From an uncultured Victivallales bacterium (GTDB lineage: Bacteria; Verrucomicrobiota; Lentisphaeria; Oligosphaerales; JABHEG01), in assembly GCA_964607765.1 (NCBI GenBank), contig CAZSNT010000022.1, forward strand, positions 12,189 through 76,188: a stretch of DNA of 64,000 nucleotides, written 5' to 3'. Below, piece after piece: positions 6,325 through 56,891 of this stretch (its first letter is position 1; each line of letters opens with the position of its first letter). The notes beneath the pieces are model-generated. The model saw only the letters and a program-made list of their open reading frames with translations. It ran no database searches and had not been told where the DNA came from. Made by a program: the position numbers and the translations under genes.

Positions 6325-6338
6325 GTGGTCTCCGAGAG

Positions 6339-6432
6339 ATTGCTGGGTTGTTGGATTATTGGACTGGTGGGTTGCCGGATCCAGGTTCCTCCCCACTCCT
6401 CGCTCCCCGCTCCCCGCTCCCCGCTCCTCACC
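6339..6432. repeat. Composite short-tandem-repeat element in the pfk-to-oxidoreductase spacer (TTGCTGG/GTTGTTG-type block plus CGCTCCC heptamers)
   Basis: Read directly. 6339-6378 is attgctgggttgttggattattggactggtgggttgccgg. 6388-6432 reads on the minus (mRNA) strand as TGA GGAGCGG GGAGCGG GGAGCGG GGAGCGA GGAGTGG GGAGGAA, starting at the pfk stop codon. Confidence 0.9.
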
Positions 6433-7744
6433 AGTATTTGTGCTGCTGGGTGACACTCAGCACGCTCTGCCAGAGCTGTCCTTTCGGATCCACTTTGCGC
6501 CGGCTGCGCGTGGCCAGGTCGATCGGCACGCAGGTGAAGTGGCCGTGCCAGTAGCCGATGACGACGTTGGTCATCCCCGCCATGGCCGCGTGTACCGCGT
6601 TCTGGGCCAGATGCAGGCAGAATACCGCGTCCGTACCGAGGGCCGGCACGCTTCGGACCAGGTAGCTCGGATCGAAGTAGCGGATAGCGTGGTCCACGCT
6701 GCGTCCCGTGAGATACTCGGAGATCCGGCCCTTGAGGAACAGCCCGATGTCCTGGTGCAGGACATTGCCCGAGGCGTCGGTGCGCTGGGCCTCACTGTCG
6801 AACAGCTCCTGGCCCGCGCCTTCAGCCACCACGATCACCGCGTGCTGCTTCTCGATCAGCCTGCGTTCGAGAGCGGACAGGAAACCGGTGGCTCCTTCCA
6901 GCTCGAAAGGGACCTCCGGAATGAGACAGAAATTGACGACCGAGTTGGCCAGGCTGGCACTGGCCGCGATGAATCCGGAGTCGCGCCCCATGAGCCGGAC
7001 CAGACCGATGCCGTTGAACGCGCCCTTTGCCTCGGAATGCGCGCAGCTGATAACCGGCGCGGCGGCGTACACGGCCGTCTCGTAACCGAACGTGCGTTCC
7101 ATGAAATTCAGGTCGTTGTCGATCGTTTTCGGGATACCCACCACGCTGACGGGCATCTGCCTTTCGCGCAGCGCGTTGGCAATGTCTCTGCCGCCCCGCT
7201 GCGTGCCGTCGCCACCGATCGTGAAGAGCATGTTGATGTTCAACCGGTCAAGGGTGCGGACAATCTCGTCGGTGTCCTGTTCGCCCCGCGACGAACCGAG
7301 GATCGACCCGCCATTTTCGTGGATCGGGTCAACGCTGTCAGGGTCAAGATGCAGCGGCTCCAGGCCATAGTCGGGGACCAGCCCACGGTAGCCGTATCGG
7401 ATCCCGAATATGTTGTCCACGCCATAATCCAGGCTCAGCGTGTTGACCAGCGCTTTGATGACGTCGTTGATGCCGGGGCACAGGCCGCCGCAGGTCACAA
7501 TGGCCGCGCGCGTCCAGGCAGGGTCGTGGAAGATCCGCTGGCGCGGTCCGGCCGCGACGAACCCGGGAACGGGCTCCCCGGCAGCAGCCAGCTCAGTCAA
7601 TTGCTGCGTGTCGGCATGGAATGCAATGCGGGCGTCGTCGTCCACAAACGAGACGCCGTGCAGGCCGGACTTGAGGGTGGGCTTACCGACGCGCCGTACG
7701 TCGAAGTCAGCGGCTTGGATGTCTGCGTTGTTTGCGGCTGTCAT
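6428..7744 (-). CDS. pfk: 6-phosphofructokinase (long ~440 aa clade; phosphoryl donor not decidable from sequence)
   Basis: CGGLCPGINDV, TIGGDGTQRG and PKTIDNDL motifs. Confidence 0.9.
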   Translation of the reverse strand: MTAANNADIQAADFDVRRVGKPTLKSGLHGVSFVDDDARIAFHADTQQLTELAAAGEPVPGFVAAGPRQRIFHDPAWTRAAIVTCGGLCPGINDVIKALVNTLSLDYGVDNIFGIRYGYRGLVPDYGLEPLHLDPDSVDPIHENGGSILGSSRGEQDTDEIVRTLDRLNINMLFTIGGDGTQRGGRDIANALRERQMPVSVVGIPKTIDNDLNFMERTFGYETAVYAAAPVISCAHSEAKGAFNGIGLVRLMGRDSGFIAASASLANSVVNFCLIPEVPFELEGATGFLSALERRLIEKQHAVIVVAEGAGQELFDSEAQRTDASGNVLHQDIGLFLKGRISEYLTGRSVDHAIRYFDPSYLVRSVPALGTDAVFCLHLAQNAVHAAMAGMTNVVIGYWHGHFTCVPIDLATRSRRKVDPKGQLWQSVLSVTQQHKYW

Positions 7745-18726: not shown

Positions 18727-19734
18727 CTACCGAAACCAGCCGCGTCTCCTACGCCGGCGCCGGCGCCGGCCCGGGTCGTCGTCATCGTCGTCATCATCGT
18801 CGTCATCATCGTCGTCATCGTCGTCGTCATCGTCGTCCCCGGGATTGTCCCCGTCTTCCGTCCCGTCGCCTCCGGGCAGTTGGTTGACCTCGCGCCGCGT
18901 GGTCTCGTTCTCGACCGTGCCGCTTGCCTGCGTGAACAGGCCGGAGTTCGTTGCCGTGGCTCCGGTCAACGCCACGGCGCCGCTGCCTACGCGCAACTCG
19001 GTCTGGGCGTGCGTGTCGTTCACGCTCGTGTCGACAATGAACTGTGTGCCCACAACACCGGCGATGGCCGCGGGGGTCACCACCTCGAACTTGGACTTCG
19101 GCGTGCGGTTCGAGGGCACGCTCACGTTGATGCTGGTGGCGCCGTAGTCCTCGAACACGCGGATGATCGAGTACAAACGCCCGTCCATGGAACGGATGGA
19201 CGTCAGGACCATCGCCCGGCCCGACAGGCTCGCCGTGGAGCCGTCCTCAAACGTGAGAACGCCGCCCGTTACCTCGTCGCCCGGATTTACGGGCTTGCCG
19301 TCGTGCAGGATCACACCGTTGTGGAACGCTCGCGTGCCCCTGCCCGGCGCGAAATTCACCACTTGATGGTGTGGACAGCCGGCAAAGTAGCTGTCGAGCT
19401 GCGCATGCTCGTCCTGTTCTTCACCCATGGCCCTGGGCACGTAGTACATCTCGTAGTTGTTCCCCGTGGTGGGGCAGTACCAGCTGTCCTTCTCTCCCCC
19501 GTGGTACTTGGCCAAAGCGGTCTGAAGCCCCTCGTGCGCGGGATAGCTCTGGTTGTCGTTGTAGAACAACTGAACGGCCATGGAGATGCCGCGAATGTTG
19601 TTGATACACTCCGCCTGGGCGGCACGCTCGGAAGCCTTGCGGATCACTGGTACCACCAGCGCCATGAGCACAAAGACCATGCTCAGTGCTACAAGCAGTT
19701 CGGTGAGACTGAAGACGTTCTGTTTGCTTCTCAT
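18727..19734 (-). CDS. Pseudopilin-like protein (prepilin-type N-terminal helix) fused to a FecR-like domain, with Asp21-Pro-Gly-Arg9 C-terminal tail
   Basis: N-terminus NVFSLTELLVALSMVFVLMALVVP. Central/C-terminal TPAAIAGVVGTQFIV resembles FecR-domain strands. The tail is read directly. Confidence 0.8.
   Translation of the reverse strand: MRSKQNVFSLTELLVALSMVFVLMALVVPVIRKASERAAQAECINNIRGISMAVQLFYNDNQSYPAHEGLQTALAKYHGGEKDSWYCPTTGNNYEMYYVPRAMGEEQDEHAQLDSYFAGCPHHQVVNFAPGRGTRAFHNGVILHDGKPVNPGDEVTGGVLTFEDGSTASLSGRAMVLTSIRSMDGRLYSIIRVFEDYGATSINVSVPSNRTPKSKFEVVTPAAIAGVVGTQFIVDTSVNDTHAQTELRVGSGAVALTGATATNSGLFTQASGTVENETTRREVNQLPGGDGTEDGDNPGDDDDDDDDDDDDDDDDDDDDDPGRRRRRRRRRGWFR
18742..18837 (-). repeat. 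Coding homopolymer tracts: 21 Asp codons (18775-18837) and 9 Arg codons (18742-18768)
   Basis: Counted codon by codon: 14 GAC + 7 GAT, and Arg encoded by 5 different codons. Confidence 0.95.
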
Positions 19735-19988
19735 TCTGGTGCTCCCGTGGGACCGTCCCGAAACTGCAGCTCAACGCTGGCAAACGTTGCTGAGTTCGTT
19801 CAGATCTGACCTCTCCTTTGGACCGTTCTCACTTTCGCAAACAACACGGCTCAGTCACTCTCAGGCTCCTCGGCGTTGATAGCTTAGCATATTCGATGCC
19901 AGAACGTTGTCCGAGCTCAGGCACCATGGTCCCGGTGTGCCGGCTTTCGCAAAACTGAACACTTGCGTCGACGTTATCGTCCGCCTTC

Positions 19989-20132: not shown

Positions 20133-22592
20133 ATGTCAGGCACCAAGCTGATTCCCGCAAGCACTCGTCTGCCGCTGCTCATGGCAGCACTAGTTGTGAC
20201 CCTGTTCACGATTCGGGCTTTCGAGCCGCTCGAGACCATGGCGCAGGACGTGCGCTTCATGTTGCGCGGCTACGACACCGCGACGGAGTCGGACGTCGTG
20301 GTCGTGGGCATCACAAGCCAGTGCATCGACAAGCTTGGGGAGCCGCCCTGGCCGCGGTCGCACTACGCCAAGGCCATTGACACCCTGGTCGCAGCAGACG
20401 TGGCAGTGATCGCTCTGGACGTCTGCTTCCAATCCCAAAGGGACAAGGAGAAGCAGAGCGACGCACAGTTCGTGGACGCCGTACGGCGCGCGGGTAACGT
20501 CGTGCTGCCCGTGTTCTGTCCTGTGGCGCTGAGGAGTTTCGGCACGGGCGGGATTCGCCGAGTCGATGATCTGACGGAGAATTTTCCTGCGCTGAGCCGG
20601 GCGGCGGCAGGCCTGGGTCACATCAACCTGCCGCCGAGCCTGGACAGCCGTCGCCGGTTCGCGCCCTGGGGTATCGAGCACAACGATAGGGTCTACCTCA
20701 ATCTCGGGCTGGAGAGCGCCTTCAAGTACTTGGAAGTCAAGGCCAAACAGGGCCGCACTTTCGACGTGCCGCCAGCGGATCAGGTCCGCTCCATTCCGGT
20801 GAACGACGAGGGCGAATTCGTCATCAACTACATGGGCCAGCATGCGACGCTCGATCTGTTCCCGTTCCATTGGCTGCTGCAGGGCAGGCTGCCTGCCGAC
20901 CTCATCAGGGGCAAGCTCGTGCTCATCGGGCAGACGGCTCTGGGACGCAAGAACGCCGATCTCATCCCCACGCCGTTGGGCGAGATGTACGGCGTGTTCG
21001 CCCAAGCTGCCATCATGGACAATGTGCTGAGCAGGCGCTTCCTGGTCCGTCAGGGCTACGTGAGCGCACTGATCATGATCCTGCTGCTGTCCCTGGTCAG
21101 CGGGGTTGCCTTCCGGCGCCTGTCATGGGGCCTGACGCTGGTGGGCGGCGCGCTGTCCATGTTCCTGGTGGCCTTCGCTGCGTTCTTCGCGTTCAACCGG
21201 TTCGGCCACTCTGTCGAGGTCGTGCCGTGCCTGGCTGTGCTGGCTGGTAATTTCCTGGCGGCCCTGGTGATGAACCTGCACGAATCGTGGCAGACCGTCG
21301 AGCACCAGGAGATGGAGCTGGGACACATTCTGCATTCCAGTCAGATGGCTACCGAGCGTGTGGCTGCGCGTAACGCGCCGCAGATGCTGATCAGTCTGAT
21401 AGGGCAGACAATCGGCTGCGAATTTGCCACGCTGTGCCTGCGCAAACGCGACGGAAGTTGGTCGTGGACCGATCCGCAGCGACGCTCGGCCGGTGAGGAC
21501 GAACTCACCCCGGCTCGCGTGCGGGAGTTCGAGGAGGAAGCCAACGTCTGGCTCGGCAAAGAGTCTGCTCCGTACCTTACGTATCACCTGAGCAAAGACG
21601 CTCGGTTCCCTGCAACCGACTTGCCGGCCGCCTCCTTCCTCAGTGTGCCGCTCGTGGTGCAGGAGTCGCCCATCGGCCACGTCAATCTCTACAACAAGAC
21701 CCCGTCCCTGGTGTCGCCGACAGGCGAGTACACCGAGGACGACCTGCGCCTGGTCGCCGTGCTCTGCCAACAGGCCGCGTTGCTGCTGGATAATTCGATG
21801 CTCGTCGAGGACCTGGAGGGACGCAATGCCGAGCTGCGGCAGGCAATGATCCAGCTTCGGGAAGCGCAGGATGAGCTCGTGCGCCGCGAGAAGCTCTCCA
21901 CGGTGGGGAAGATGGCGTCGATGATCATCCACGATATCCGCGGCCCGTTGACGGCATTGATGGGATTCGGCGAGCTGATGAAAGGCCGAGACATGCCCGA
22001 GGAAGAAGCCACGGAATACGGCGAGATCATCGTGCAGGAGACGGATCGGGTCAACCGCATGATACAGGAGATTCTCGACTTCACGCGCGGCACGAAAAGC
22101 CTCAAAGTCGAACAGCTCGACGGCTCCGTGCTGTTGGCGGAACTGGTCCGGCGCCTCAACGACGAGTTCCGTGGGCAGGAGATTCAGCTGGTGACCAAAA
22201 TCCCGGGAGAGACCTCTTTCCGAGGCGACCGGGAGAAGATGCTGCGAGTGCTGCTGAACTTGTGCCGGAACGCCGCCGAAGCCATGAACGGGCGCGGCAG
22301 TATCGAGGTCGCGTACCAGGACTGTGAGGATGGCGTCAAGTTCGTCGTGAGAGACGACGGGCCCGGCGTTCCGGAGAGCATTCGGGACAAGCTCTTCGAT
22401 CCCTTCGTCACGGCCGGGAAGAAGAAAGGTACGGGGCTCGGCCTCGCTATCGTGCAGAAAATCGTGCACGACCACGATGGTGACATCACCGTGTCGAGTG
22501 AGTCGGACAGCGGTACCACATTCACCGTCCAGCTTCCGACCGAAGGCACCCGCGACGCTGCCGCTGCGGCAGCCGCGGCCAGTCAGGAGTAG
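20133..22592 (+). CDS. CHASE2 - TM - GAF - HisKA - HATPase sensor histidine kinase
   Basis: CHASE2-like N-terminal region (VVVVGI...PWPRSHYAKAIDTLVAADVAVIALDV), three or more TM helices, H-box HDIRGPLTAL, and G-box GTGLGLAIV. ATG at 20133. Confidence 0.85.
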   Translation: MSGTKLIPASTRLPLLMAALVVTLFTIRAFEPLETMAQDVRFMLRGYDTATESDVVVVGITSQCIDKLGEPPWPRSHYAKAIDTLVAADVAVIALDVCFQSQRDKEKQSDAQFVDAVRRAGNVVLPVFCPVALRSFGTGGIRRVDDLTENFPALSRAAAGLGHINLPPSLDSRRRFAPWGIEHNDRVYLNLGLESAFKYLEVKAKQGRTFDVPPADQVRSIPVNDEGEFVINYMGQHATLDLFPFHWLLQGRLPADLIRGKLVLIGQTALGRKNADLIPTPLGEMYGVFAQAAIMDNVLSRRFLVRQGYVSALIMILLLSLVSGVAFRRLSWGLTLVGGALSMFLVAFAAFFAFNRFGHSVEVVPCLAVLAGNFLAALVMNLHESWQTVEHQEMELGHILHSSQMATERVAARNAPQMLISLIGQTIGCEFATLCLRKRDGSWSWTDPQRRSAGEDELTPARVREFEEEANVWLGKESAPYLTYHLSKDARFPATDLPAASFLSVPLVVQESPIGHVNLYNKTPSLVSPTGEYTEDDLRLVAVLCQQAALLLDNSMLVEDLEGRNAELRQAMIQLREAQDELVRREKLSTVGKMASMIIHDIRGPLTALMGFGELMKGRDMPEEEATEYGEIIVQETDRVNRMIQEILDFTRGTKSLKVEQLDGSVLLAELVRRLNDEFRGQEIQLVTKIPGETSFRGDREKMLRVLLNLCRNAAEAMNGRGSIEVAYQDCEDGVKFVVRDDGPGVPESIRDKLFDPFVTAGKKKGTGLGLAIVQKIVHDHDGDITVSSESDSGTTFTVQLPTEGTRDAAAAAAAASQE

Positions 22593-24107: not shown

Positions 24108-24124
24108 GTTCCCGCTACTCGCTA
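24108..24124 (-). repeat. GAGTAGC x2 heptamer mini-array overlapping the pspA stop codon
   Basis: The minus strand reads GGC GAG TAG CGAGTAGCGGG. It is the same unit as the arrays at 28910 and 39097. Confidence 0.8.
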
Positions 24125-24802
24125 CTCGCCGGCGTGCGGCTTGCCGCCAGCCCGCTGTTTCATCTCTTCGAGCTCACGCTCAATATCCTCGTCACCGGTC
24201 AGTTCGGCAAACGCTTCGTCCAGGGCGCTGCCGCGTCGGCTGTCGTTCACCAACTCCGCAGCAGCCTCCATGCGCTCGATTCGCCCCTCGAACTGCTCGA
24301 ACCGTACCCACGCATCACTCGTGTCGGCGCGGCGGATGCCCTGCTGCGCCTGACGCTTGCGTTGCGCATGAATGTGGCGTCGCACCAGCACACGGTGCTT
24401 CTCACGTGCCGAGCTCAGCTTGTCCTCCAACTGATCGATGTCGCGGCGGTGCTGCTCGATCAGCTCCTGACACTCGGCCGCCTCCCGCTCGAGCGCATCG
24501 ACCCGATCAGTGCACTGTCGCTTGCGCAACAAGGCCTCCCGCGTCAGGCCCTCACACCCTTTGCTCAACGCCAACTCGGCGCGCTCGGACCAGAGCGTGA
24601 CGTTCTGTCCGGCCGCTTCCAGCTCACGCTCGATCTTCTTCCGTGTCGCCATTGTCCCGGCGCAGGACGCTTTGATCTCGACCAGCGTGTCCTCCATCTC
24701 CTGGATCATCAGCTTGATGAGCTTCTCCGGATCCTCCGCCTTCTCCAGCATCGCATTGATGTTCGAGCTCACAATGTCACGCAATCGTGTGAAAATGCCC
24801 AT
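24122..24802 (-). CDS. pspA: Phage shock protein A (PspA/IM30 family)
   Basis: MGIFTRLRDIVSSNINAMLEKAEDPEKLIKLMIQEMEDTL is a canonical PspA N-terminus. The start is taken at 24802. Confidence 0.92.
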   Translation of the reverse strand: MGIFTRLRDIVSSNINAMLEKAEDPEKLIKLMIQEMEDTLVEIKASCAGTMATRKKIERELEAAGQNVTLWSERAELALSKGCEGLTREALLRKRQCTDRVDALEREAAECQELIEQHRRDIDQLEDKLSSAREKHRVLVRRHIHAQRKRQAQQGIRRADTSDAWVRFEQFEGRIERMEAAAELVNDSRRGSALDEAFAELTGDEDIERELEEMKQRAGGKPHAGE

Positions 24803-28054: not shown

Positions 28055-28909
28055 ATGCAGTTCGTACTGTTCTCGAAGCACTGGAAAGAGCTCGACATCG
28101 AGGGGATGGTCGAGCGGACACTCGAGATTGGCGCCGACGGCGTGGACCTGGCCGTGCGCCCCGGCTTCGTCGTCAATCCGGACAATGTGCGCACGGAGCT
28201 TGCGCCTGCCGTCGCCAAGTTCCGCGCGGCCGGGCTCGACGTGCCCATGATCTCGACGGACGCGGGTTTCATCAGCCCGGACGACCCCGTTGCGGAGTCG
28301 ACGGCGGCTGCGCTCCAGGAGGCCGGCGTGCGCTACGGCAAGCTGGGCTACTGGCGCTGGCGCGACGGCGAGACCCCGTACTGGGAGCAGGTCGCGAAGA
28401 TCCGGCATGACCTGGAAGGGTTCGAAGCGCTCGGCCGCAGGTACGGCGTGACCTTCTGCTACCACACGCACAGCGACTACTTCGGGCTCAACGCGGCCGC
28501 CATGATGGACTTGCTCGAGGGCCGCGACCCGCAACACATGGGCGCGTACCTGGACACGGGCCACCTGCACTACTGCGGCGAGCCGTACCCCATGGCCATC
28601 GACATCGTGGGGCGCTATCTCACGCTCGTCTCGTTCAAAGACACGTCGTTCAAGCGCGTGAACGACGAGGCGGAGGAGCTGCCGGAGTGGAAGCGCGTCA
28701 TTGTGCCCGCCGGTTACGGCGTGGTGAAGTGGCAGAGCGTGTTCGGCGGCCTCATCAAGGCCGGCTACGACGGCGTGTGCAGCTGTCATTGCGAGTTCGC
28801 TGCGTCATCCCCGGAGGAGTTCCTGCACCTGCAGAAACGCGAGGTCGCGTATCTTCGCAATCAGCACGCGCAAGCGCAAACCCGTGCCGCCGCGGCATCG
28901 ACTCAGTAA
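28055..28909 (+). CDS. Sugar phosphate isomerase/epimerase (xylose isomerase-like TIM barrel)
   Basis: Family-like pattern (GADGVDLAVRP...CYHTHS...YLDTGH). ATG at 28055. Confidence 0.8.
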   Translation: MQFVLFSKHWKELDIEGMVERTLEIGADGVDLAVRPGFVVNPDNVRTELAPAVAKFRAAGLDVPMISTDAGFISPDDPVAESTAAALQEAGVRYGKLGYWRWRDGETPYWEQVAKIRHDLEGFEALGRRYGVTFCYHTHSDYFGLNAAAMMDLLEGRDPQHMGAYLDTGHLHYCGEPYPMAIDIVGRYLTLVSFKDTSFKRVNDEAEELPEWKRVIVPAGYGVVKWQSVFGGLIKAGYDGVCSCHCEFAASSPEEFLHLQKREVAYLRNQHAQAQTRAAAASTQ

Positions 28910-29016
28910 CGAGTAGCGGGGAGCGAGTAGCGAGTAGCGGGGACAGAGGAATGCCTGGCGCCTAACCCCTAACGCCTAGCGCCTAACCCCTAACGCCTAG
29001 CCCCTAACCCCTGACG
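28910..29016. repeat. Composite heptamer element: [GAGTAGC/GGGGAGC]x5 - spacer - [CCTAACC/CCTAACG/CCTAGCG]x8
   Basis: Read directly. The first block starts right after the TAA of the plus-strand gene. The second block (28961-29016) encodes the last 8 codons and the TAG stop of the minus-strand HlyD gene. Confidence 0.92.
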
Positions 29017-30474
29017 AATCCAGATGATCGCCCGTGCCGTGGTGCCGGTTACCGGCGTGCCCTCGAGCGGGGCGAGCGGCCGGATCCTGACCCACACCCG
29101 GTCGGCTTGCGTCGTGCGCAGCGAGGCCCCGCCGAGATCGACCGTGCCGCGTTCCAGCGACTGCGTGTGAAGGCTGACCTGCTCGACCACCGCGTCGACG
29201 TAGGAGCCCGAGCCGGCCGGCACACGGACCTGTGCCGCCTGGCCGGCCTCCACCAGCATGGCGTCCTCCTCCCGAACGAACCCCTCGATCCAGCGCGGTT
29301 TGCTGTCGTCGCTCACCAGGATGCAGGGCACGCCTTTGCGGCAGACCTCGCCCACATCATCGAAGACGCGTGTCACGGTGCCGGACACCGGGCTGATGAT
29401 CTCCATGCTCTCCAGCGCGGCGGCGCGGCCCCTTATCTCTGCGTCGCTCTTGGTGATCTCCGCTTCGGCTGCCCGGGTCTTCTCCTGGGCTATGGCCACC
29501 GCCGTGCGTTTGGCCTGGGCCTGTTTCAGGCGGGCTTCCGCTTCCGTCTGCTCCGCCTTGCGGATGGTGAGGTCGGCACGCAGCGCATCCAGCTCTTTCT
29601 CGCTCGCCATGACCAGGGCGAGACCTGCTTCCCTCGCGGCCAGCCCCTGCGCAGCTGCTTCGATCTCGTCCGGCGTGGCACCGGCACGCAGCCGTGCGAG
29701 CTCCAGCTCCGCTTCACGCACGGCATTTTCCTGCATGGTAAGCCGGGTCTTGCGTTCCTCGAGCTGATGCTGGGAGTGGATGCCGTCCACCACGAGTGCC
29801 TCAGACTGGCGCACCTCCAGCGCGTAGAGCGCCTGCAGGGCCTTGGCGGTGGCCACCCGCGCCTCCGCTGCCTGGACCAGTTCCTTGCGCGTGCCTGCCT
29901 TGACTTGCTTGAGCGTCGCGCGTGCTTCCTCTGCCTGGGCTTTCGCCTGCTGCGCCTCCGCTGCCAGGCGCGCCACGCGCAGATCGATTACGGCCTGGGC
30001 CGCCGTGACCTGCGCTTTGGCCACGGCCAGTTGTGCCTCGGCCATGTGAATGTCGGCCTCCACCTGCGCGGACACCAGCGTGCACTGGGCCTGGGCTTCG
30101 GCCAGCCTGCTGCGCCGGATCAGGTGGTCGGCGCGTGCGGCCTCGAGAGCGGCCACCAGCTCGGAGTCGTCAAGACGCGCCAGCCGCTCGCCTTTGCTCA
30201 CCTGCTGCTTCTCCTTGACATACACTTCCAGCAAGCGGGCATCGACCTTCGACGAGAGCGCCGCCACGCTTGCCTGAACGCGCGCGCTCACCGTGCGCAC
30301 CGTGCAGAAACTGAACCAGAGGAACACGCTCAGACCGATCAAGGCACAGATCAGCACACCCCCCACACCCCACACAATGCGCTGCATCCAGCGCCGTTTC
30401 TTGCGGCGCGGCGTGCCGCCCCGCGCCTTGCGTCGCAGGTCGTAGTTGCCGTCCTTGTTGCTTTCGGAGGCCAT
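28990..30474 (-). CDS. HlyD-family membrane fusion / secretion adaptor protein
   Basis: N-terminal basic region and TM helix, a long Ala/Gln-rich coiled coil, and a C-terminal beta-barrel region. The start is taken at MASESNK (30474). Confidence 0.85.
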   Translation of the reverse strand: MASESNKDGNYDLRRKARGGTPRRKKRRWMQRIVWGVGGVLICALIGLSVFLWFSFCTVRTVSARVQASVAALSSKVDARLLEVYVKEKQQVSKGERLARLDDSELVAALEAARADHLIRRSRLAEAQAQCTLVSAQVEADIHMAEAQLAVAKAQVTAAQAVIDLRVARLAAEAQQAKAQAEEARATLKQVKAGTRKELVQAAEARVATAKALQALYALEVRQSEALVVDGIHSQHQLEERKTRLTMQENAVREAELELARLRAGATPDEIEAAAQGLAAREAGLALVMASEKELDALRADLTIRKAEQTEAEARLKQAQAKRTAVAIAQEKTRAAEAEITKSDAEIRGRAAALESMEIISPVSGTVTRVFDDVGEVCRKGVPCILVSDDSKPRWIEGFVREEDAMLVEAGQAAQVRVPAGSGSYVDAVVEQVSLHTQSLERGTVDLGGASLRTTQADRVWVRIRPLAPLEGTPVTGTTARAIIWIRQGLGARR

Positions 30475-31036: not shown

Positions 31037-31340
31037 TCCCTCGTTTCCGTTCCTTGTCCCGCTCCCTGTTTCCTCGTCCTCGTCCCCGTCCTCGTCCCCG
31101 TGTCCTCCGCCCTCCGGATGACTGAATGACTCAGTGACTCAGTGACTCATGTGGGCTGGCGCTTCGCATCCCGCATCTCCGCCGCTCCCCGCTCCTCCCT
31201 CTCGTTCCTCGCTCCTCGCTCCTCGTTCCTCGCTCCTCGCTCCTCGTTCCTCCCTCCTCGTTCCTCCCTCCTCCCTCCTCGCTCCTCGTTCCTCGTTCCT
31301 CGCTCCTCGCTCCTCGTTCCTCCCTCCTCCCTCCTCCCTC
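31037..31340 (-). repeat. Intercistronic spacer made of phased tandem repeats (20 x 7-mer, 4 x 8-mer, plus purine-rich degenerate heptamers)
   Basis: 31201-31340 is exactly 20 units of CTCGTTC/CTCGCTC/CTCCCTC. 31118-31150 is gatgactg aatgactc agtgactc agtgactc. 31037-31117 is a C-rich degenerate repeat. Confidence 0.95.
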
Positions 31341-33609
31341 ACACCGCCTTCAGGCTCGCAAGCTCGGACTGCAACCGGCACAGTCGCGCGTACAGCCCGT
31401 CCGTCTCAAGCAGCTCGTCGTGCGTCCCGATCTCGATCAGTTTGGAGCGCTCCAGCACCACCAGGCGGTGCGCTTTGCGCAAGGTGGACAGGCGGTGCGC
31501 GATCGCAAACGTCGTGCGGTCTTGCACCAACCGTTCCAAGGCGGCCTGGATCTTGGCTTCGGTTTCGGTATCGACCGAGGCGGTTGCTTCGTCGAGGATT
31601 AGGATACGCGGGTCACGCAGCACGGCCCGTGCGATCGAGATCCGCTGTCTCTCGCCGCCGGACAAGGTCTGACCGCGCTCCCCGATCACCGTGTCGTAAC
31701 CGTCGGGCAGGTTGACGACGAACTCGTGCGCGTTCGCCGCGCGTGCCGCGCTCATGATCTCCTCAGCCGAAGCTTCCGGCTTCCCGTAGGCGATGTTGGA
31801 CCACACCGTGCCGTGGAACAGGTAGGGTTCCTGCAGCACGACGCCGATCTGTTCCCGGTACCAGCCCAGGTCGAACTCCTGGATGTCGCGGCCGTCCACC
31901 CGGATTTCGCCTTCCTCCACGTCGTAGAAGCGCGCTATCAGGTGTACGAGCGTGCTCTTGCCCGCGCCGCTCGGACCCACGAGTCCGATCATCTCCCCGG
32001 GCTCGATCTTGAAGCTGATGTCGTCCAGCGCGTACTTGCCGGGCTCGTAGGAGAAGCGCACGTCCTGTAGTTCCACCGCGCCCTGCATGCGGTTGAGTAT
32101 GAGGCCCGGGGTTTCGAGCGGTTCGGGTTCGGCGTCCAGAATCTCGAACACGCGCTCCGCCGCTGTCAGGCAATGCTGCAGGCGGTGGTTCATTCGCCCG
32201 AACTCCTGGACCGGCCGGTAGAAACGCCACAGGTAGCTGGTAAACGCCACGAGCGTGCCCAGCGTCTCCATGTTGTTGATCACCATGAACCCGCCGACGC
32301 TGAAGATCAGGATGGAGCCCAGCGATGTCTGGATCGTCACGAACGGGAAGAAGGCGCTCACCAGCTTGATCGCCCGCATCTCCTGCTGGAACAGGTCCTG
32401 GCTCTTGGCGCGGAACGTGGCCGCCTCACGCCGTTCCTGTGCGAACGCCTTGACCACCCGGATGCCCGGTATGGTGTCGGCCAGGACCGCGTGCAGCCCA
32501 GACATCCGGCGCCAGATACGGTGATAGAGCAGGTGCATCTTGTGCCCGAACAGCCAGGTGCTGAACATGATGACAGGCGTTGGCGCGAGGGCGAGCAGGA
32601 ACAGGCGCCAGTTCAGGAACAGCAGGATCGCAGCGATCAGCACCATGGTGGCGATATTGACGATCGCGTCCTGGAACCCCTCCGCGATGAAGTACTGCAG
32701 CCGCCCCAGGTCGCTGGTCACCCGCGACATGATCCGGCCCGTCTGGCGTTGGCTGAAGAAGCGCAGCTGCAGCATCTGCATGTGCGCGTAGAGCCGCACG
32801 CGCAGGTCGAACAGCACGCGCTGGCCGACCCATTGCATGACGTAACCACGGAACACGGAGCCGACTGCCGAGAGCAGGTGGATGGCGGTCAGGGCGCCGA
32901 CCACCACGGGCAGAAGCGCGGCGTTGCCGGGCGTGATGACCCGGTCGATCAGGATCTTGGTCAGGTACGGCGGCATGAGCTGGATCCCGGTGATCGACAG
33001 CGTCAGCACCAACCCCAGCAAGGCCATCCACCGGTAGGGCAGCAAGAAAGAAAACAGGCGGCGCAGAATCTGACGGCGGTCCTGGCAGTGGATACACACC
33101 TCGCTCCAACGGCTCAGCGCGCGGCCGCACTGGCGGCAGCGGTGATCCGGGCGCTTGGTGGCCGGCGGCGCAATGTCCTCGAAACCGCGCCCCTCGGACA
33201 GGCCCTTTACGACCTCATTGATGTAGTAGCACAGGTCCGATGCCTCGTGGTGCGAGCCCAGGGAGAAACGTGCCACCTCCTCCCCACCCGTGCTGCACCG
33301 GATGACCACCGCTCCGGAGCCGACGTACGAGCGCAACACAGCGTCTTCCACGTCAGCCAGGTCGGCCTCGTAGACCACCTCGCCGCCGCGCCCGCCGTGG
33401 TCGCCGTCTATGCTCAGGATGCGCGTGTTGGTCAGGAAACACCAGCGTTCCCCGAACGCTCCCGACGGCAGGATGTCCGAGAACAGGCAGGCCACGGCGT
33501 GCTCGCCGGCGCGCAGAGCGTCGTCGAGCCAGACGGCAACATCCGGGGGGAGCGTCAGCTCTCCCAAGGCCGGGTGCCGTACCGAACTGCTGGGGATTGC
33601 ATCGGGCAT
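31339..33609 (-). CDS. ABC exporter, fused permease/ATPase (MsbA-like type I exporter fold) with ~200 aa N-terminal PH-like domain and zinc ribbon
   Basis: Walker A GPSGAGKST, signature LSGGERQR, Walker B ILILDEATS and 6 TM helices. The N-terminal extension contains CRQCGRALSRWSEVCIHCQD. The start is taken at MPDAIPSS (33609). Confidence 0.9.
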   Translation of the reverse strand: MPDAIPSSSVRHPALGELTLPPDVAVWLDDALRAGEHAVACLFSDILPSGAFGERWCFLTNTRILSIDGDHGGRGGEVVYEADLADVEDAVLRSYVGSGAVVIRCSTGGEEVARFSLGSHHEASDLCYYINEVVKGLSEGRGFEDIAPPATKRPDHRCRQCGRALSRWSEVCIHCQDRRQILRRLFSFLLPYRWMALLGLVLTLSITGIQLMPPYLTKILIDRVITPGNAALLPVVVGALTAIHLLSAVGSVFRGYVMQWVGQRVLFDLRVRLYAHMQMLQLRFFSQRQTGRIMSRVTSDLGRLQYFIAEGFQDAIVNIATMVLIAAILLFLNWRLFLLALAPTPVIMFSTWLFGHKMHLLYHRIWRRMSGLHAVLADTIPGIRVVKAFAQERREAATFRAKSQDLFQQEMRAIKLVSAFFPFVTIQTSLGSILIFSVGGFMVINNMETLGTLVAFTSYLWRFYRPVQEFGRMNHRLQHCLTAAERVFEILDAEPEPLETPGLILNRMQGAVELQDVRFSYEPGKYALDDISFKIEPGEMIGLVGPSGAGKSTLVHLIARFYDVEEGEIRVDGRDIQEFDLGWYREQIGVVLQEPYLFHGTVWSNIAYGKPEASAEEIMSAARAANAHEFVVNLPDGYDTVIGERGQTLSGGERQRISIARAVLRDPRILILDEATASVDTETEAKIQAALERLVQDRTTFAIAHRLSTLRKAHRLVVLERSKLIEIGTHDELLETDGLYARLCRLQSELASLKAV

Positions 33610-33810: not shown

Positions 33811-34302
33811 TTGGTTGCCGGCAGGGGACGGCCGCTCCCTGCGCTTAGCCGCAGGGGGAGGAAAGTCCGGACTCCGCAGGGCAGGAAGTCCTTTTGAAAA
33901 GAAGGATACCGCGGACCATATGCCGCGGGAAGGAAAGTGCCACAGAAAATATACCGCTCTTCAGCTGAAGAGTAAGGGTGAAAAGGTGGGGTAAGAGCCC
34001 ACCGCTCGAGGAGAGATCCGAGAGGCAAGGCAAACCCCTTCCGGAGCAAGACCAAATAGGGAACAATGATGCTGCCCGTATCGCTCCCGCACCTAAACGG
34101 CTTTGGCAGTGCTGTTTGCAGACGGTCCAGCCTGGTGCAGGCAGGGCCGGGGACAGCCCGAGCCGCCTAGGTGCGGGATAAGTTCCGGGTTCCGGTCGCT
34201 TAGATGAATGGTCGTCGCCCGTGCCTGCTTCGGTGCCGGAGTTTCTCCGGCTCCGATCGCGGCGCGGGGCACAGAATCCGGCTTATACCTGTCGGTAACC
34301 AG
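33811..34302 (+). ncRNA. rnpB: RNase P RNA, bacterial type A
   Basis: GGAGGAAAGTCCGGAC, GTGCCACAGAAAA, GGTAAGAGCCCACC, CAAGACCAAATAGGG, CTTAGATGAATGG and ACAGAATCCGGCTTA conserved blocks in the canonical order. The P1 pairing is ggttgccggcagg / cctgtcggtaacc. Confidence 0.92.
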
Positions 34303-38376: not shown

Positions 38377-39108
38377 ATGCGCACGTTTCGGAACTTCTCC
38401 TGGAAAGACAGCAACCTGCGGATCTGCTGTAGCCGTGCCCAGGCGGTCGAGAGCGAGATCGTCCGTCAGCGGACCACACTCGAAGCCTACATCGAACGGC
38501 ATCCGGAATTCCGCACCAGTTACGTGCCCGTCGGGCTGCGCAGCGATGCGCCACGCATCGCCAGACTCATGCAGGAAGCGGCCGCACGCGTCGGGGTCGG
38601 GCCCATGGCCGCGGTGGCCGGCACCATCGCACAACTGGCCGCGGAAGCCGGCGTGGCCGCAGGTGCGACAGAGGCCATCGTCGAGAATGGCGGAGACATT
38701 TACCTGATTTCCGACTGTGACATCACCGTCGCTCTCCACACCGGTACGGAGCGGCTGGGCAGTCGGCTCGCGCTCGCATTGAGCCCCGCACACCTGCCGC
38801 TGTCGCTCTGTTCCTCGTCCAGTCGGATGGGACACTCCGACAGTCGCGGTGACTGTGACCTGGCTACCGTCGCCTCGCGCAGCGCAGCCCTGGCAGACGC
38901 CGCCGCAACGCATGCCTGCAACCTGGTGCGTGACCAGGCCGATATCGATTGCGTGCTGGAACAGGTGGGCGCCATCCGCGGCGTTGCAGGGCTGCTGATC
39001 GTCAAAGGCGATCGCGTCGGACTCTACGGCGATCTGCCCCCGTTGGTGAAACACGCAGACCCCGACGTCGGTCTGAAAGTCACAAAGGACCGTCGCAGTA
39101 GCGAGTAA
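38377..39108 (+). CDS. UPF0280 / COG2122 (ApbE-like) protein
   Basis: GVGPMAAVAGTIAQ...ENGGDIYL pattern typical of UPF0280. The final codons and the TAA stop come from the GAGTAAC repeat. Confidence 0.78.
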   Translation: MRTFRNFSWKDSNLRICCSRAQAVESEIVRQRTTLEAYIERHPEFRTSYVPVGLRSDAPRIARLMQEAAARVGVGPMAAVAGTIAQLAAEAGVAAGATEAIVENGGDIYLISDCDITVALHTGTERLGSRLALALSPAHLPLSLCSSSSRMGHSDSRGDCDLATVASRSAALADAAATHACNLVRDQADIDCVLEQVGAIRGVAGLLIVKGDRVGLYGDLPPLVKHADPDVGLKVTKDRRSSE

Positions 39109-39229
39109 CGAGTAGCGAGTAACGAGTAGCAGGCCGCAGGCCCGAATGAGTCACCTAACCCCTAACGCCTAACCCTAACGCCTAACCCCTAACGCCTAAC
39201 CCCTAACACTGAACACCGAACACACCAAC
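39097..39229 (+). repeat. Second copy of the composite heptamer element: [GAGTAGC/GAGTAAC]x4 - spacer with ATGAGTCAC - [CCTAACC/CCTAACG...]x11
   Basis: Read directly. It has the same order and orientation as 28910-29016. The last units degenerate to CCTAACA CTGAACA CCGAACA CACCAAC. Confidence 0.92.
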
Positions 39230-40150
39230 CCAAAGCACATCTGCCTGGTCTTCGTCGACGGCCTCGGAATCCCCGAAGGCGATCCCGCAGATTCGATCTA
39301 CGAGGCGTGCCCCGTATTGCTGCGGCTGCTGCGCAACCACTGTGTGCCGATCGATGTGCATCTGGACGTGCCGGGCGTGCCGCAGAGCGCGACGGGCCAG
39401 ACCGCACTGTTGACCGGCGTGAACGCACCGTCGCTCGTGGGTGCGCACGTGGAAGGGTTCCCCAACGCTCCACTCCGGCGGATTCTTGAACAGGACAATG
39501 TCTTCACGAAGCTCCTCGCCCGGGGCCAGGCCTGCACGTTTGCGAACGCGTACATCCTGGCGCGGGGACCGCATCTGCCGCTTGCGTTCCGTTCCGCGAC
39601 AACCGTGTCGACGCTCGCCGCTTTCGGCACGACAAGGAACCGGGAAGAGCTCCTCGCCGGGCGTGCCGTCTACCACGACCTGACGCGGCACACACTGGCC
39701 GAACGGGGCATCAACGGCATCCCCGTCATCTGCGAGGAAGAGGCCGCAACACACCTCTTGGCCATCGCACGCAGTGTCCGGTTCTGCCTGTTCGAGTACT
39801 TCCTGACCGATCACGTCGGGCATCGCGGCACGGATGCGGATAAACGCTCTGTCCTCGCCTCCCTGGATCGGTTCCTCCAGCACCTGCTGGCGGGCCTGGA
39901 CGCAGAGCGTGAACTCCTGCTCCTGGTCAGCGATCACGGCAACATTGAGGCGACGGACCGCCGCGGGCACTCGCACAATCCCGTGCCCTGGCTCGCGGTC
40001 GGCTGTGCTGCGGAACGTGCGTTGTCCGACTGCTCGTCACTGCTCGACGTCACACCGAAGATCCTCGAACTGCTCGCGCCGTGCCGTCCCGAATTGGAAA
40101 CTGAACAAACGTGCTTACAGTGTATGGCCAAAGGCGACACTGAACACTGA
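39209..40150 (+). CDS. Metalloenzyme (alkaline-phosphatase/iPGM-like, PF01676-type) superfamily protein; start codon unresolved
   Basis: VFVDGLG, SATGQTALLTG, TDHVGH and SDHGN metal-site motifs. The frame is open from 39200, but the first canonical start is TTG 39317, downstream of the VFVDGLG motif. 39209 is an in-frame CTG. Confidence 0.6.
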   Translation: MNTEHTNPKHICLVFVDGLGIPEGDPADSIYEACPVLLRLLRNHCVPIDVHLDVPGVPQSATGQTALLTGVNAPSLVGAHVEGFPNAPLRRILEQDNVFTKLLARGQACTFANAYILARGPHLPLAFRSATTVSTLAAFGTTRNREELLAGRAVYHDLTRHTLAERGINGIPVICEEEAATHLLAIARSVRFCLFEYFLTDHVGHRGTDADKRSVLASLDRFLQHLLAGLDAERELLLLVSDHGNIEATDRRGHSHNPVPWLAVGCAAERALSDCSSLLDVTPKILELLAPCRPELETEQTCLQCMAKGDTEH

Positions 40151-42641: not shown

Positions 42642-42719
42642 CGGGGTGTAGCGCAGCCTGGTCAGCGCGACTGGTTTGGGACCAGTAGGTCGCGAGTTCG
42701 AATCTCGCCACCCCGACCA
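42642..42719 (+). tRNA. tRNA-Pro (UGG), CCA encoded
   Basis: The cloverleaf was folded by hand: acceptor cggggtg/caccccg, anticodon loop ttTGGga, T-arm gcgag-ttcgaat-ctcgc. Confidence 0.92.
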
Positions 42720-47358: not shown

Positions 47359-47396
47359 CGTCAACGCCCTTCCGCCTGCCACCACCCGCAGGCACG

Positions 47397-47502
47397 CCAT
47401 CCGTGGTCGGGCTCTCCGGTATCCGTGGTCGGGCTCTGCCATCCGTGGTCAGTCTGTCCGCCATCCGTGGTCGGGCTCTGCCATCCGTGGTCAGCCCTGT
47501 CC
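47397..47502. repeat. Five imperfect 20-22 bp direct repeats (ATCCGTGGTC-R-G-N-CT-S-T-S-C) upstream of the esterase gene
   Basis: The ATCCGTGGTC core starts at 47399, 47421, 47441, 47463 and 47483, giving spacings of 22, 20, 22 and 20 bp. Confidence 0.9.
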
Positions 47503-47647
47503 GAGACTGATGCGGCCCATCGTCGCCACTATACGAGACCGTTCAGTGGATGCCATCCCGAGCGGCGGAGATGATGCCCCCACGGCGCGCAGCCCTGTCG
47601 TGGCACATCTCTGTTCCGCCACTACGGCATGAAGGACGGTGGGTGAC

Positions 47648-56312: not shown

Positions 56313-56891
56313 TCACTCCCCCGCGTCGCCGCCGTCGCCCCCGGTAAACAGCCGCGTGAGCTGCCACAGCGGCAGCCCCGTCCGCCTCAACACGCTCCGG
56401 CCCGGGCGCTTCAGGAAACACGTCACGCCCACATCGCCGCGTTCCATCCAGAAACACTCCCAGCGCTCCTGCCCCAATTCGTTCAGGCGCTGCTCCGCCC
56501 CGGCAGTATCCCGTGATTCCAGCACGACTGTCTTGTACTCCCACGTCCCGATCTTCTTCAGATCCTCCTTCACCCACTCGCTCACCGTAGCAGGGACCTT
56601 CTCACCCGAGCGTTTCGCCTGTTCATACAGCTCATTGATTCTCCGGCTGATCTTCTTCCGGTCATACAGCTCCTTGACTCTCTGCAGTGCGCCGCTCTTC
56701 TCCTCCTGCTCTTGCACGGCCGGCGTGTCGACGGCCGTGTCCCTGCCGACATTCCCCGTCCCGGGATCCTCCCGACCCTCGGCCGCCACCGCAAACACGA
56801 GCAATCCCAACACAACCGAAACAAGCCCTCTGCCACTCTTCATCCGACTCTTCATCCGACTCTTCATCCCGCTCTTCATCCCACTCTTCAT
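56313..56891 (-). CDS. Secreted DUF4177-like protein with repeat-encoded N-terminus (MKS[G/R] x5)
   Basis: Hydrophobic signal core LVSVVLGLLVFAVAA. The C-terminal GTWEYKTVVLE...LNELGQERWE resembles DUF4177. Five in-frame ATGs at 12-nt spacing. The start is placed at the most upstream (56891), which is uncertain. Confidence 0.6.
   Translation of the reverse strand: MKSGMKSGMKSRMKSRMKSGRGLVSVVLGLLVFAVAAEGREDPGTGNVGRDTAVDTPAVQEQEEKSGALQRVKELYDRKKISRRINELYEQAKRSGEKVPATVSEWVKEDLKKIGTWEYKTVVLESRDTAGAEQRLNELGQERWECFWMERGDVGVTCFLKRPGRSVLRRTGLPLWQLTRLFTGGDGGDAGE

Follow-up and report, generated by a model that had tools for sequence, protein, structure and literature searches.

Results

In the 64-kb window (the whole stretch of DNA analysed here), a TIM-barrel gene on the plus strand and an HlyD-family gene on the minus strand converge, and the 80-nt gap between them consists almost wholly of two heptamer arrays, which we call block A and block B. 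The features of this locus are the following.

28055..28909, plus strand: TIM-barrel gene, xylose-isomerase-like (sugar phosphate isomerase/epimerase); PF01261, E 2e-20
28904..28945, plus strand: block A, six heptamers, cAGTAAC GAGTAGC GGGGAGC GAGTAGC GAGTAGC GGGGACA; TRF and pattern scan
28946..28953, no strand: non-repetitive spacer, GAGGAATG
28954..29016, minus strand: block B, nine heptamers; TRF and pattern scan
28990..29013, minus strand: C-terminal extension QGLGARR and TAG stop (CAG GGG TTA GGG GCT AGG CGT TAG); translation
29013, minus strand: putative stop-loss base, terminal unit CCTGACG against CCTAACG; from the other units and the orthologue ends
28990..30474, minus strand: HlyD-family membrane-fusion/adaptor gene, 494 aa (P0001); Pfam HlyD_D23, HlyD_3, Biotin_lipoyl_2

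The TIM-barrel gene (GC3 0.87) encodes a product of 284 aa, identified as P0169 in NCBI and Logan, and ends with a TAA at 28907-28909. Block A is purine-rich on the sense strand of this gene, and its first unit contains the last codon and the stop. An earlier note on this DNA had described a composite element between the convergent genes, and the sequence bears this out: the letters that it gave for block A at 28910-28944 (CGAGTAG CGGGGAG CGAGTAG CGAGTAG CGGGGAC) and for block B at 28961-29016 (CCTAACC CCTAACG CCTAGCG CCTAACC CCTAACG CCTAGCC CCTAACC CCTGACG) are those present. It had placed the repeats after the TAA; repeats do follow, but the TAA itself lies inside a degenerate unit, cAGTAAC, at 28904-28910 in the GAGTAGC register. 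The spacer, given as 12 nt, is in fact 16 nt long, and seven of its bases (CCTGGCG, 28954-28960) are a degenerate ninth unit of block B, leaving 8-9 bases that are truly unique.

On the plus strand, block B reads CCTGGCG, then the triplet of units CCTAACC CCTAACG CCTAGCS twice, then CCTAACC CCTGACG; read along the sense strand of HlyD, it is CGTCAGG GGTTAGG GGCTAGG CGTTAGG, and so on. TRF assigned period 7 to both arrays, which run head to tail with at least three copies each (4.9 and 7.4), and a higher-order period of 21 nt to block B (93% matches, score 107). CCTARCS x2, with one mismatch at most, matched 14 times against 0.11 expected from shuffles, and GAGTARC x2 matched 7 times against 0.02; the arrays are thus not due to chance. 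Run SRR8146442 yields three independent Logan contigs that match the window at 100% identity and that all end within an array: L127 matches up to 28939, L128 up to 31230 and L126 from 39178. This identity shows that the arrays are not an assembly artefact.

The HlyD gene also matches the NCBIfam entries HlyD/EmrA/RND_mfp, and its product is 100% identical to P0001. The gene closes an operon with the order ABC transporter - DUF1854 - HlyD, an order also found in the homologous loci L001-L006 and L249. Its reading frame ends ...ATT CGT CAG GGG TTA GGG GCT AGG CGT TAG, with the stop at 28992-28990, and the minus-strand translation confirms that both the tail and the stop are repeat-encoded, as had been claimed. 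The tail is lineage-specific, a point on which the earlier note had proposed a comparison of orthologues: 21/30 of these, among them the two nearest (65% and 57% identity), have precisely the preceding Arg as their last residue. At the DNA level the ends of these orthologues are CGC TGA or CGG TGA, and no array is present. No arrays were found at orthologous HlyD loci of 53-65% identity, and the nearest orthologue for a comparison of unit numbers, 65% identical, is one of those without. The C-terminal extensions of the remaining orthologues are unrelated in sequence to QGLGARR. One of them, GLTGVKE in P0009, bears a faint likeness to it and was rejected as its counterpart, its DNA being devoid of repeats.

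Base 29013 gives CAG on the sense strand where the other units have TAG. Judging from these units and from the orthologue ends, the simplest cause of the tail would be a TAG>CAG change at this single base of the first unit. An ancestral unit CGT-TAG-G would have supplied Arg and the stop; a T>C substitution to CGT-CAG-G would then have let translation run on for 7 codons, the 7 x 3 = 21-nt phasing guaranteeing another in-frame TAG 21 nt further on. We propose that the HlyD tail is a by-product of the array, an accidental addition of seven amino acids. The tails of TIM-barrel orthologues vary, with 7-16 residues after QKREVAFLR, and give no measure of an array origin beyond the last codon.

The association of the two blocks, whose recurrence the earlier note had taken as a test of its reading, is found again in the same order at 39096-39223. 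At least five further short-period arrays are present within the 64-kb window; the arrays outside the first locus include the following.

39096..39130, plus strand: second block A, cAGTAGC GAGTAAC GAGTAGC GAGTAAC GAGTAGC; TRF and pattern scan
39131..39153, no strand: spacer of the second composite, AGGCCGCAGGCCCGAATGAGTCA
39154..39223, plus strand: second block B, (CCTAACC CCTAACG) x about 4, with one 1-nt deletion; TRF and pattern scan
24113..24129, minus strand: solitary (GAGTAGC) x2.4 array; TRF and pattern scan
6385..6430, minus strand: (GRGGAGC) x about 6 array with a canonical G4 motif; TRF and fold
6338..6380, minus strand: degenerate octamer array, C/A-rich on the sense strand
31183..31341, minus strand: (GAGGGAG/GAGGAGC/GAGGAAC) x about 22 array; TRF

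A PRK04334-family gene (38377-39108) has its final three codons and its stop (TAA, 39106-39108) inside the second block A. The partner block B of this array decays to CTGAACA CCGAACA and adjoins the 5' end of a metalloenzyme gene; at 39200-39317 the array may have overwritten a start codon, misleading automatic annotation. Both copies of block A start with cAGTARC, and the A-to-B spacing is 22-23 nt in both composites.

The other arrays are placed in the same way. In array 24113-24129 the first unit forms the end of pspA, namely its final GAG codon and its stop (TAG, 24124-24122); the pspA product matches PspA_IM30 (E 1e-45). Array 6385-6430 starts on the stop of a phosphofructokinase gene (TGA, 6430-6428), and the octamer array sits between that array and the ATG (6324) of a Gfo/Idh/MocA gene, so that the pair 6338-6430 has the G-rich then C-rich polarity of the composites. 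Within the operon, array 31183-31341 starts on the stop of the ABC transporter gene (TGA, 31341-31339); arrays there make up a gap of 302 nt between the ABC transporter and DUF1854 genes, compared with 10-55 nt in orthologous loci. In all, 6/6 purine-rich arrays of the window have their start in or on the stop codon of a same-strand gene; the six genes are those for the TIM-barrel protein, HlyD, the ABC transporter, phosphofructokinase, PspA and the PRK04334-family protein. All period-7 arrays of the window lie between genes supported by GC3 and Pfam, and overlap them by eight terminal codons at most.

The same unit families recur at several unrelated loci of the 64 kb: GAGTARC at three (24113, 28904 and 39096), CCTAACS at two (28954 and 39154) and GRGGAGC at three (6385, 31183 and, as two units, within block A at 28918-28924 and 28939-28945). 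One unit is thus found at many loci, as in short tandemly repeated repetitive (STRR) sequences and long simple-sequence repeats (SSRs).

Beyond the window, CCTARCS x4 occurs in more than 119 stretches of GTDB genomes from many phyla; a G-rich partner lies upstream in 29/92 of these arrays and downstream in 1/92. GAGTARC x3 was found in at least 120 metagenome stretches, with a C-rich partner downstream in 37/99 and upstream in 7/99. A long ORF stops at the start of the GAGTARC array in 59/99 cases, against 25 for the opposite-strand control. Annotated complete genomes with CCTAGCC or GAGTAGC arrays include that of Pseudoxanthomonas mexicana (NZ_CP157201, locus L007). A crude count of ORF ends at CCTARCS arrays gave 49 against 33 of 85; CCTARCS units have stops on both strands, whereas those of GAGTARC have them on one strand only, which makes the latter contrast the clearer one. 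The composite pattern itself (GAGTARC x2, gap, CCTARCS x2) had no match in 185,579 species genomes and 241 million metagenome records, and a literature search on the unit sequences returned nothing concerning bacteria.

Discussion

The composite at 28904-29016 is one more instance of the known intergenic heptameric simple-sequence repeats, a class that the earlier note had not recognised, now in an uncultured bacterium of the PVC group. In our judgement it probably consists of two adjacent heptanucleotide arrays of the STRR / long-SSR class, one for the stop codon of each convergent gene. The purine/G-rich strand of each array is the sense strand of its anchoring gene. STRR heptamers reportedly occur in heterocystous cyanobacteria, and long SSRs with 5-11-nt units are said to have been treated by Mrazek et al. 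in 2007. Both resemble the arrays of the window in their non-coding location and in having polymerase slippage as their proposed generator; in secondary descriptions of the STRR and long-SSR surveys, the host lineage, units and heterologous pair of the window do not appear. As PMC4679880 and PMC4692102 recount it, the heptanucleotide is the commonest unit length of long SSRs (5-11 nt) in many large-genome bacteria.

Arrays of this kind would lengthen and shorten through slipped-strand mispairing, and the higher-order periods of 14 nt and 21 nt may indicate recent multi-unit duplications. They would be tolerated outside coding sequence only, since a 7-nt period shifts the reading frame and many units carry stops, and would for this reason end exactly at ORF boundaries.

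One close published parallel is that of Rehm et al. (2015, PLoS One, PMC4692102), who described G-rich heptameric SSRs with the units GGGAATC in Xanthomonas and GGGGAYT in Nostoc. These repeats are 89-93% intergenic, comprise 2-26 copies and occupy many loci per genome. They lie mostly within 50 bp after a stop on the coding strand, stop overlap included, or alternatively just upstream of a start with the G-rich strand non-coding; convergent pairs number 70-75 per Xanthomonas genome. The arrays of the window are alike in their 7-nt units, intergenic site and many loci. In 6/6 of the purine-rich ones the G-rich strand is the coding strand and lies 0-50 bp after the stop or overlaps it, and convergent pairing is seen at 28904-29016, at 39096-39223 and, with the octamer partner, at 6338-6430. 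They differ in their units (GAGTAGC/GGGGAGC and GGTTAGG/CGTTAGG/CGCTAGG), in their host lineage, which homologue names place in the PVC group (Planctomycetota, Lentisphaerota, Kiritimatiellota), and in having partners that are not complementary. G-tracts are absent from block A and present in every second or third unit of block B, so that the G4 capacity that defines the repeats of Rehm et al. is lacking there; among the window's arrays, 6385-6430 does show it, taken as a G-tract of at least 3 per unit over four or more units.

A second parallel is provided by the TAACTGA heptamer direct repeats of marine Beggiatoaceae, cyanobacteria and Bacteroidetes (MacGregor 2015, PMC4679880), a study that also cites the polymerase-slippage/7-nt proposal. 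In these repeats the presence of stops in every frame restricts how far an array can run into the end of an ORF, and 13 cases overlap a stop. Likeness to the window extends to intergenic arrays at many loci, all-frame stops in one orientation, overlap restricted to the last few codons of ORFs with documented stop codons supplied by the repeat, the absence of predicted secondary structure, a scattered phylogeny and the lack of a known transfer mechanism. However, TAACTGA repeats are A/T-rich and lie mainly just upstream of start codons, where a translational role has been proposed, whereas the arrays of the window are G/C-rich, follow stop codons and form polar pairs.

Several functions can be weighed against this reading. 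REP/BIME elements and intrinsic terminators are likewise short repeated intergenic sequences that follow stop codons, including between convergent genes, but they work through stable stem-loops. All six folds computed for the composites were less stable than the mean of the shuffles (z +1.1 to +3.0), and 177-200 of 200 shuffled sequences matched or exceeded them in stability, which shows that the arrays are not terminator hairpins. A scan of the 80-nt convergent gap (28910-28989) revealed no site resembling a terminator, and a hairpin or intrinsic terminator was rejected on these two grounds. A known RNA family was rejected as well: at the gathering threshold of Rfam 15 the window yields an RNase P RNA and two tRNAs only, none of them at the arrays.

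Rho utilization (rut) sites are C-rich, G-poor and unstructured. The element could accordingly be a bidirectional, factor-dependent (Rho-type) terminator or insulator, in which a transcript would cross its own G-rich array and then the C-rich, unstructured complement of the partner, where Rho would load. The weak folds and the lack of an intrinsic-terminator-like site fit this idea, as does the C>G skew of the arrays, which is among the strongest of all 56-nt windows in the 64 kb (C makes up 50% and G 12% of block B on the plus strand, and 45% and 17%, respectively, of the complement of block A on the minus strand). The G-then-C polarity seen across phyla (29:1 and 37:7) moreover demands a strand-aware explanation. 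Yet the partners found in many further genomes are complementary, so that they could form hairpins instead, and the genes on either side of the pairs at 39096-39223 and 6338-6430 run in the same direction, so that termination between them might do harm. We therefore regard Rho-type termination as conceivable but doubtful. If the arrays have a function at all, it most likely operates at the transcript level, through an unstructured, strand-polar tract, C-rich on any read-through or antisense RNA, as a candidate Rho-loading-site-like element. The block B at 39154-39223 fits awkwardly with such an unstructured RNA, since the C-rich strand there is the sense strand and a gene starts directly after it.

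In a broader and more speculative form, to which we give a slightly lower probability, paired arrays may be a widespread structure-independent, strand-polar intergenic "punctuation" read by a conserved factor (such as Rho or a heptamer-binding OB-fold protein of Csp/S1 type). The module would comprise a purine/G-rich array that starts on the stop codon, a short spacer and a pyrimidine/C-rich array, and preferred units may have spread among stop codons. The pair in the window is non-complementary and unstructured, which argues that the formation of hairpins or G4s is not the common feature of paired arrays. Were the punctuation reading true, this pair would show that hairpins are dispensable and polarity essential.

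The earlier note had suggested that the element may act as an all-frame translational stop cassette. On such a reading the arrays would be selected to stop translation between convergent genes in any frame on either strand. The stop content on which it relied is there in block B, which has 2-3 stops in each frame of both strands. It is incomplete in block A, where two of three frames on the plus strand have stops and the minus strand has none. All-frame stops are also recorded for the TAACTGA repeats (PMC4679880), in-frame stops are scarce at 64% GC, so that back-up stops could help, and after the putative TAG>CAG change HlyD would have been lengthened by just 7 codons. However, the sister arrays GRGGAGC (6385-6430) and GAGGRRS x22 (31183-31341) hold the same position relative to stop codons and are stop-free in every frame, so stop content is not the unifying trait of these arrays. 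The Xanthomonas GGGAATC and Nostoc GGGGAYT units are stop-free on the G-rich strand too (PMC4692102), and all-frame stops result trivially from any stop-containing unit whose period is coprime to 3. A selected stop cassette is accordingly improbable, and as a function for the arrays the suggestion is not supported.

The same note had seen in the minus strand of block B a telomere-like sequence with G-quadruplex potential. On this account the G-strand would fold in the DNA or at the 3' end of the HlyD mRNA. The G4Hunter score of this strand (mean 1.38, maximum 2.04) is the second highest in the window, the related heptamers GGGAATC and GGGGAYT form G4s in circular dichroism (CD) experiments (PMC4692102), and for the sister array 6385-6430 a strong G4 is predicted (ViennaRNA; G4 fold -22.3 against -4.3 kcal/mol). 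In block B, however, the loops between the four GGGG runs measure 3, 10 and 17 nt, and no canonical G3+N1-7 x4 motif is present in block A or block B. With the G-quadruplex model of ViennaRNA, block B at both loci has a minimum-energy fold that contains no G4, making G4 formation there unlikely as far as the model goes. Block A is nearly devoid of G-tracts, the second copy having a mean G4Hunter score of 0.17. The resemblance to eukaryotic telomeric repeats of the TTAGGG type, which share a G-rich strand with TTAGGG(G) strings, is superficial: the unit here has 7 nt, GGGG and GGCG alternate, a second copy lies 10 kb away, and the arrays are internal with genes on either side, so they are not replicon ends. 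Overall, a telomere-like G-quadruplex is distinctly improbable.

Finally, a mobile or templated origin of the composite, as a small element (MITE-like or enzyme-written) that inserts as a unit beside stop codons, is very improbable: the two copies do share A-then-B order, orientation, 22-23-nt spacing and the opening cAGTARC at unrelated loci within 64 kb, and identical heptamers occur in very distant phyla, but in the alignment, on which a MITE was rejected, the arrays alone align, spacers (GAATG apart) and flanks are unrelated, unit numbers and variants differ, neither copy has terminal inverted repeats or target duplications, and the exact composite is missing from the 185,579 species genomes and 241 million metagenome records.

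We thus retain two heptanucleotide arrays of the STRR / long-SSR class, with one qualification. Pure local slippage leaves unexplained the presence of identical units at several unrelated stop codons and, likewise, the recurrence of the A and B pair with a spacing of 22-23 nt. Both imply some dispersal mechanism or selection, for example by a binding protein.

Taken alone, the finding carries little weight. The end of the HlyD gene nevertheless offers a clean natural case of an array capturing a gene end, in which the putative stop loss would have been buffered after exactly 21 nt. Together with the anchoring of arrays on stop codons, the G-then-C polarity found in the surveys (29:1 and 37:7) sharpens the question of how such arrays arise and are maintained in bacteria.

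A composite of two heptamer arrays between convergent genes

The xylose-isomerase-like TIM-barrel gene and the HlyD gene converge, with 80 nt between their stop codons. Two heptamer arrays make up nearly all of this gap and the final 24 nt of HlyD, in a window of 64.1% G+C.

28055-28909, plus strand: TIM-barrel gene (PF01261)
28904-28945: block A, cAGTAAC GAGTAGC GGGGAGC GAGTAGC GAGTAGC GGGGACA
8 nt between the blocks: spacer, GAGGAATG
28954-29016: block B, CCTGGCG, (CCTAACC CCTAACG CCTAGCS) x2, CCTAACC CCTGACG
28990-30474, minus strand: HlyD-family adaptor gene, last in an ABC transporter - DUF1854 - HlyD operon

Block B has an extra 21-nt higher-order period (TRF; 93% matches, score 107). 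In the window, heptamer arrays gave 14 matches against a chance expectation of 0.11, and 7 against 0.02. Three independent Logan contigs (run SRR8146442), each ending within an array, are identical to the window, so that the reads themselves contain the arrays and MAG assembly did not create them. The observation of the earlier note is thus confirmed, its unit lists and HlyD end codons being correct on re-reading, while its 12-nt spacer is really 16 nt, 7 of them a degenerate B unit. Its interpretation was borne out in part only.

The co-occurrence of both blocks is repeated within the window at 39096-39223, with order and orientation kept. The A-to-B spacing is 22 nt in the first composite and 23 nt in the second. 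Further arrays were found:

39096-39130: second block A, cAGTAGC GAGTAAC GAGTAGC GAGTAAC GAGTAGC
39154-39223: second block B, CCTAACC CCTAACG ...
24113-24129, minus strand: (GAGTAGC) x2.4
6385-6430, minus strand: (GRGGAGC) x about 6
6338-6380, 31118-31149 and 63959-63995: octamer arrays, the second being ATGACTCA x4 with a palindromic TGAGTCA core
31071-31101: hexamer array
31183-31341, minus strand: (GAGGRRS) x about 22

Four different arrays occupy the 302-nt ABC-DUF1854 gap (31037-31341), which lies within one operon and measures only 10-55 nt in orthologous operons; the arrays are therefore lineage-specific intergenic fillings. The purine-rich units in this gap resemble a Shine-Dalgarno sequence (GGAGG). 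The octamer array GCTGRGTT/GTTGGATT (63959-63995) directly precedes a tRNA gene of the minus strand (63829-63902) and is similar to the octamers at 6338-6380, the partner of the heptamers there. Other features of the window are:

18775-18837: (GTC/ATC)n trinucleotide tract, higher-order period 12 nt; it falls within minus-strand ORF 18727-19770, which has GC3 support, and would give an Asp-rich run in the product
33816-34301: RNase P RNA, bacterial class A (215.8 bits)
42642-42716: tRNA, like the RNase P RNA an ordinary feature
47395-47503: intergenic 21-22-nt repeat (GCCATCCGTGGTCGGGCTCT) in about five copies, beside a gene ending near 47448; a class distinct from the heptamers
56833-56900: 12-nt tandem repeat CCRCTCTTCATC x5.7

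Arrays are anchored on stop codons

All purine-rich arrays in the window begin in or on the own-strand stop codon of a real gene:

TIM-barrel gene: TAA within the first unit, cAGTAAC
HlyD gene: TAG within the block B array
ABC transporter gene: TGA overlaps GAGGGAG
Phosphofructokinase gene: TGA overlaps GAGGAGC
PspA gene: stop and first unit GAG-TAG-C
PRK04334-family gene: stop and first unit GAG-TAA-C

Where a pyrimidine-rich second array is present, it lies towards the start of the next gene (6338-6380; 39154-39223) or towards the converging gene (block B).

At the second block B, the last in-frame stop ahead of a phosphoglycerate-mutase-like metalloenzyme gene (TAA, 39197-39199) falls inside the array. 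Between this TAA and the invariant metal-binding motif ICLVFVDGLG there is no ATG, GTG or TTG, and only CTG 39209 is usable. The public annotation (277 aa) begins at TTG 39317, whereby the invariant Asp is lost. Apparently the array has taken the place of this gene's former 5' end, and the gene either starts at CTG or is damaged.

The HlyD tail is encoded by the repeat

On the minus strand HlyD ends ...ATT CGT CAG GGG TTA GGG GCT AGG CGT TAG (...IWIR-QGLGARR*), so that the earlier claim of a repeat-encoded tail and stop holds. Alignment of 30 orthologues showed the tail to be lineage-specific: 21 of them, among them the two most similar (65% and 57% identical), stop exactly at the Arg before QGLGARR, and the extensions of the others are unrelated to it. 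Orthologous hlyD DNA ends ...ATC CGC TGA and ...GTG CGG TGA, with no repeats downstream. One orthologue (P0009) has a tail faintly resembling QGLGARR; this tail is not repeat-encoded.

The terminal B unit is CCTGACG, against CCTARCS in every other unit, and its sense strand thus reads CGT-CAG-G instead of CGT-TAG-G. The array would originally have provided the Arg codon and TAG stop of the ancestral HlyD; a single T>C at 29013 would have abolished this TAG, and translation would then continue for 21 nt (three units) to the next in-frame TAG. Such a stop-loss is the simplest reading, drawn from one base that is covered by one assembly.

Array pairs in other genomes and the known repeat class

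More than 119 stretches with CCTARCS x4 were found in GTDB species genomes, drawn from many phyla, including Pseudoxanthomonas, Thiobacillus, Frankia, Pirellulales, Acidobacteriota, Gemmatimonadales, Bacteroidota, many filamentous cyanobacteria, Megasphaera and Yersinia. When each array is read in its C-rich orientation, 29 of 92 loci show a G-rich period-7 partner upstream within 200 nt, and 1 shows such a partner downstream. GAGTARC x3 was found in at least 120 metagenome stretches, with a C-rich partner downstream at 37/99 loci and upstream at 7/99. The order G-rich, spacer, C-rich is thus strongly polar in both sets (29:1 and 37:7). At 59 of these 99 loci an ORF with 100 or more codons has its stop between -50 and +21 nt of the GAGTARC array start, compared with 25 in the opposite-strand control. 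Many metagenome partners are reverse complements, capable of forming hairpins; others are heterologous, like the pair in the window. The exact GAGTARC + CCTARCS combination had no match outside the window in the species genomes and metagenomes searched.

In a relative drawn from the orthologues of HlyD (L005; 55% HlyD identity), two complementary arrays, (TAGGCTG)n ... (CAGCCTA)n, lie at 21110-21190 on the minus strand. The pair directly follows a GATase gene and comes just ahead of the Shine-Dalgarno sequence and start codon (ATG) of the gene after it. At two CCTARCS loci, L012 (Pirellulales, about 7470-7495) and L113 (about 6150-6260), CCTAAC arrays are followed by a common ~30-nt sequence, AACAGGGGGCTAACGCCCCCCGCTCGCC, which occurs three times in L113 and looks like a hairpin-type dispersed repeat accompanying such arrays.

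G-rich heptameric SSRs of Xanthomonas and Nostoc are 89-93% intergenic, mostly follow a stop codon by no more than 50 bp on the coding strand or overlap it, seldom lie between divergent genes, occur as two convergent sites, one per strand, in 70-75 cases per Xanthomonas genome, and form G4 in vitro (Rehm et al. 2015, PMC4692102). Forward TAACTGA heptamer repeats carry stops in each of the three frames, and their arrays therefore overlap ORF ends by at most 18 nt, with 13 listed cases of stop overlap (MacGregor 2015, PMC4679880). As summarised there, Mrazek et al. 2007 found that heptanucleotides outnumber other long-SSR units, perhaps because ~7 nt interact with the polymerase as it slips. The window element agrees with this class in period, location, stop anchoring, strand rule and pairing, and departs from the Rehm subclass only in its predicted G4 capacity. 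It belongs to a known kind, stop-codon-anchored pairs of heptameric SSRs. Our literature search found no paper naming CCTAGCC/CCTAACC or GAGTAGC/GAGTAAC units, arrays of which span very many phyla.

Origin and possible roles

The arrays are probably SSRs that slippage would build and that selection would keep in non-coding DNA, so that the arrays reach right up to the ends of ORFs; the HlyD tail would be a stop-loss by-product. Slippage alone leaves unexplained the same units at several unrelated stop codons, the recurrent A+B pairing and the G-then-C polarity across phyla.

The most plausible addition, itself doubtful, acts at the transcript level: read-through or antisense RNA would carry a putative Rho-loading-site-like tract, because the arrays rank near the top of the 64 kb in C>G skew, are unstructured in predicted folds and stand in place of an intrinsic terminator between the convergent genes. 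A terminator scan found no terminator-like site in the 80-nt gap. A hairpin was rejected: three array pairs were folded on both strands, and each of the six folds was weaker than the dinucleotide-shuffle mean (z +1.1 to +3.0), 177-200 of 200 shuffles folding at least equally well. The window scan matched no known RNA family at the arrays.

The all-frame stop cassette proposed earlier is a weaker reading and an unlikely one. No frame of block B, on either strand, is free of stops, but block A has them in two plus frames only and none on the minus strand, and the GRGGAGC and GAGGRRS arrays are stop-free. Stop content does not unite these arrays.

G4 formation, proposed from a telomere-like G-strand, is unlikelier still. 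Both copies are internal, hence not telomeric. The block B G-strand scores a G4Hunter mean of 1.38 (maximum 2.04); however, its GGGG runs are spaced 3, 10 and 17 nt apart, it has no canonical motif, and the ViennaRNA G-quadruplex model places no G4 in its minimum-energy fold, so that block B is not convincingly G4. For the sister array (GGGGAGC)n at 6385-6430, a G4 fold is indeed predicted (-22.3 vs -4.3 kcal/mol). A mobile element, which might have spread both composites, is highly improbable, and a MITE was rejected, since alignment of the two copies showed no likeness outside the arrays.

Slippage-generated arrays confined by selection thus remain the preferred reading, and the distribution of CCTARCS and GAGTARC arrays across genomes is new in this analysis.
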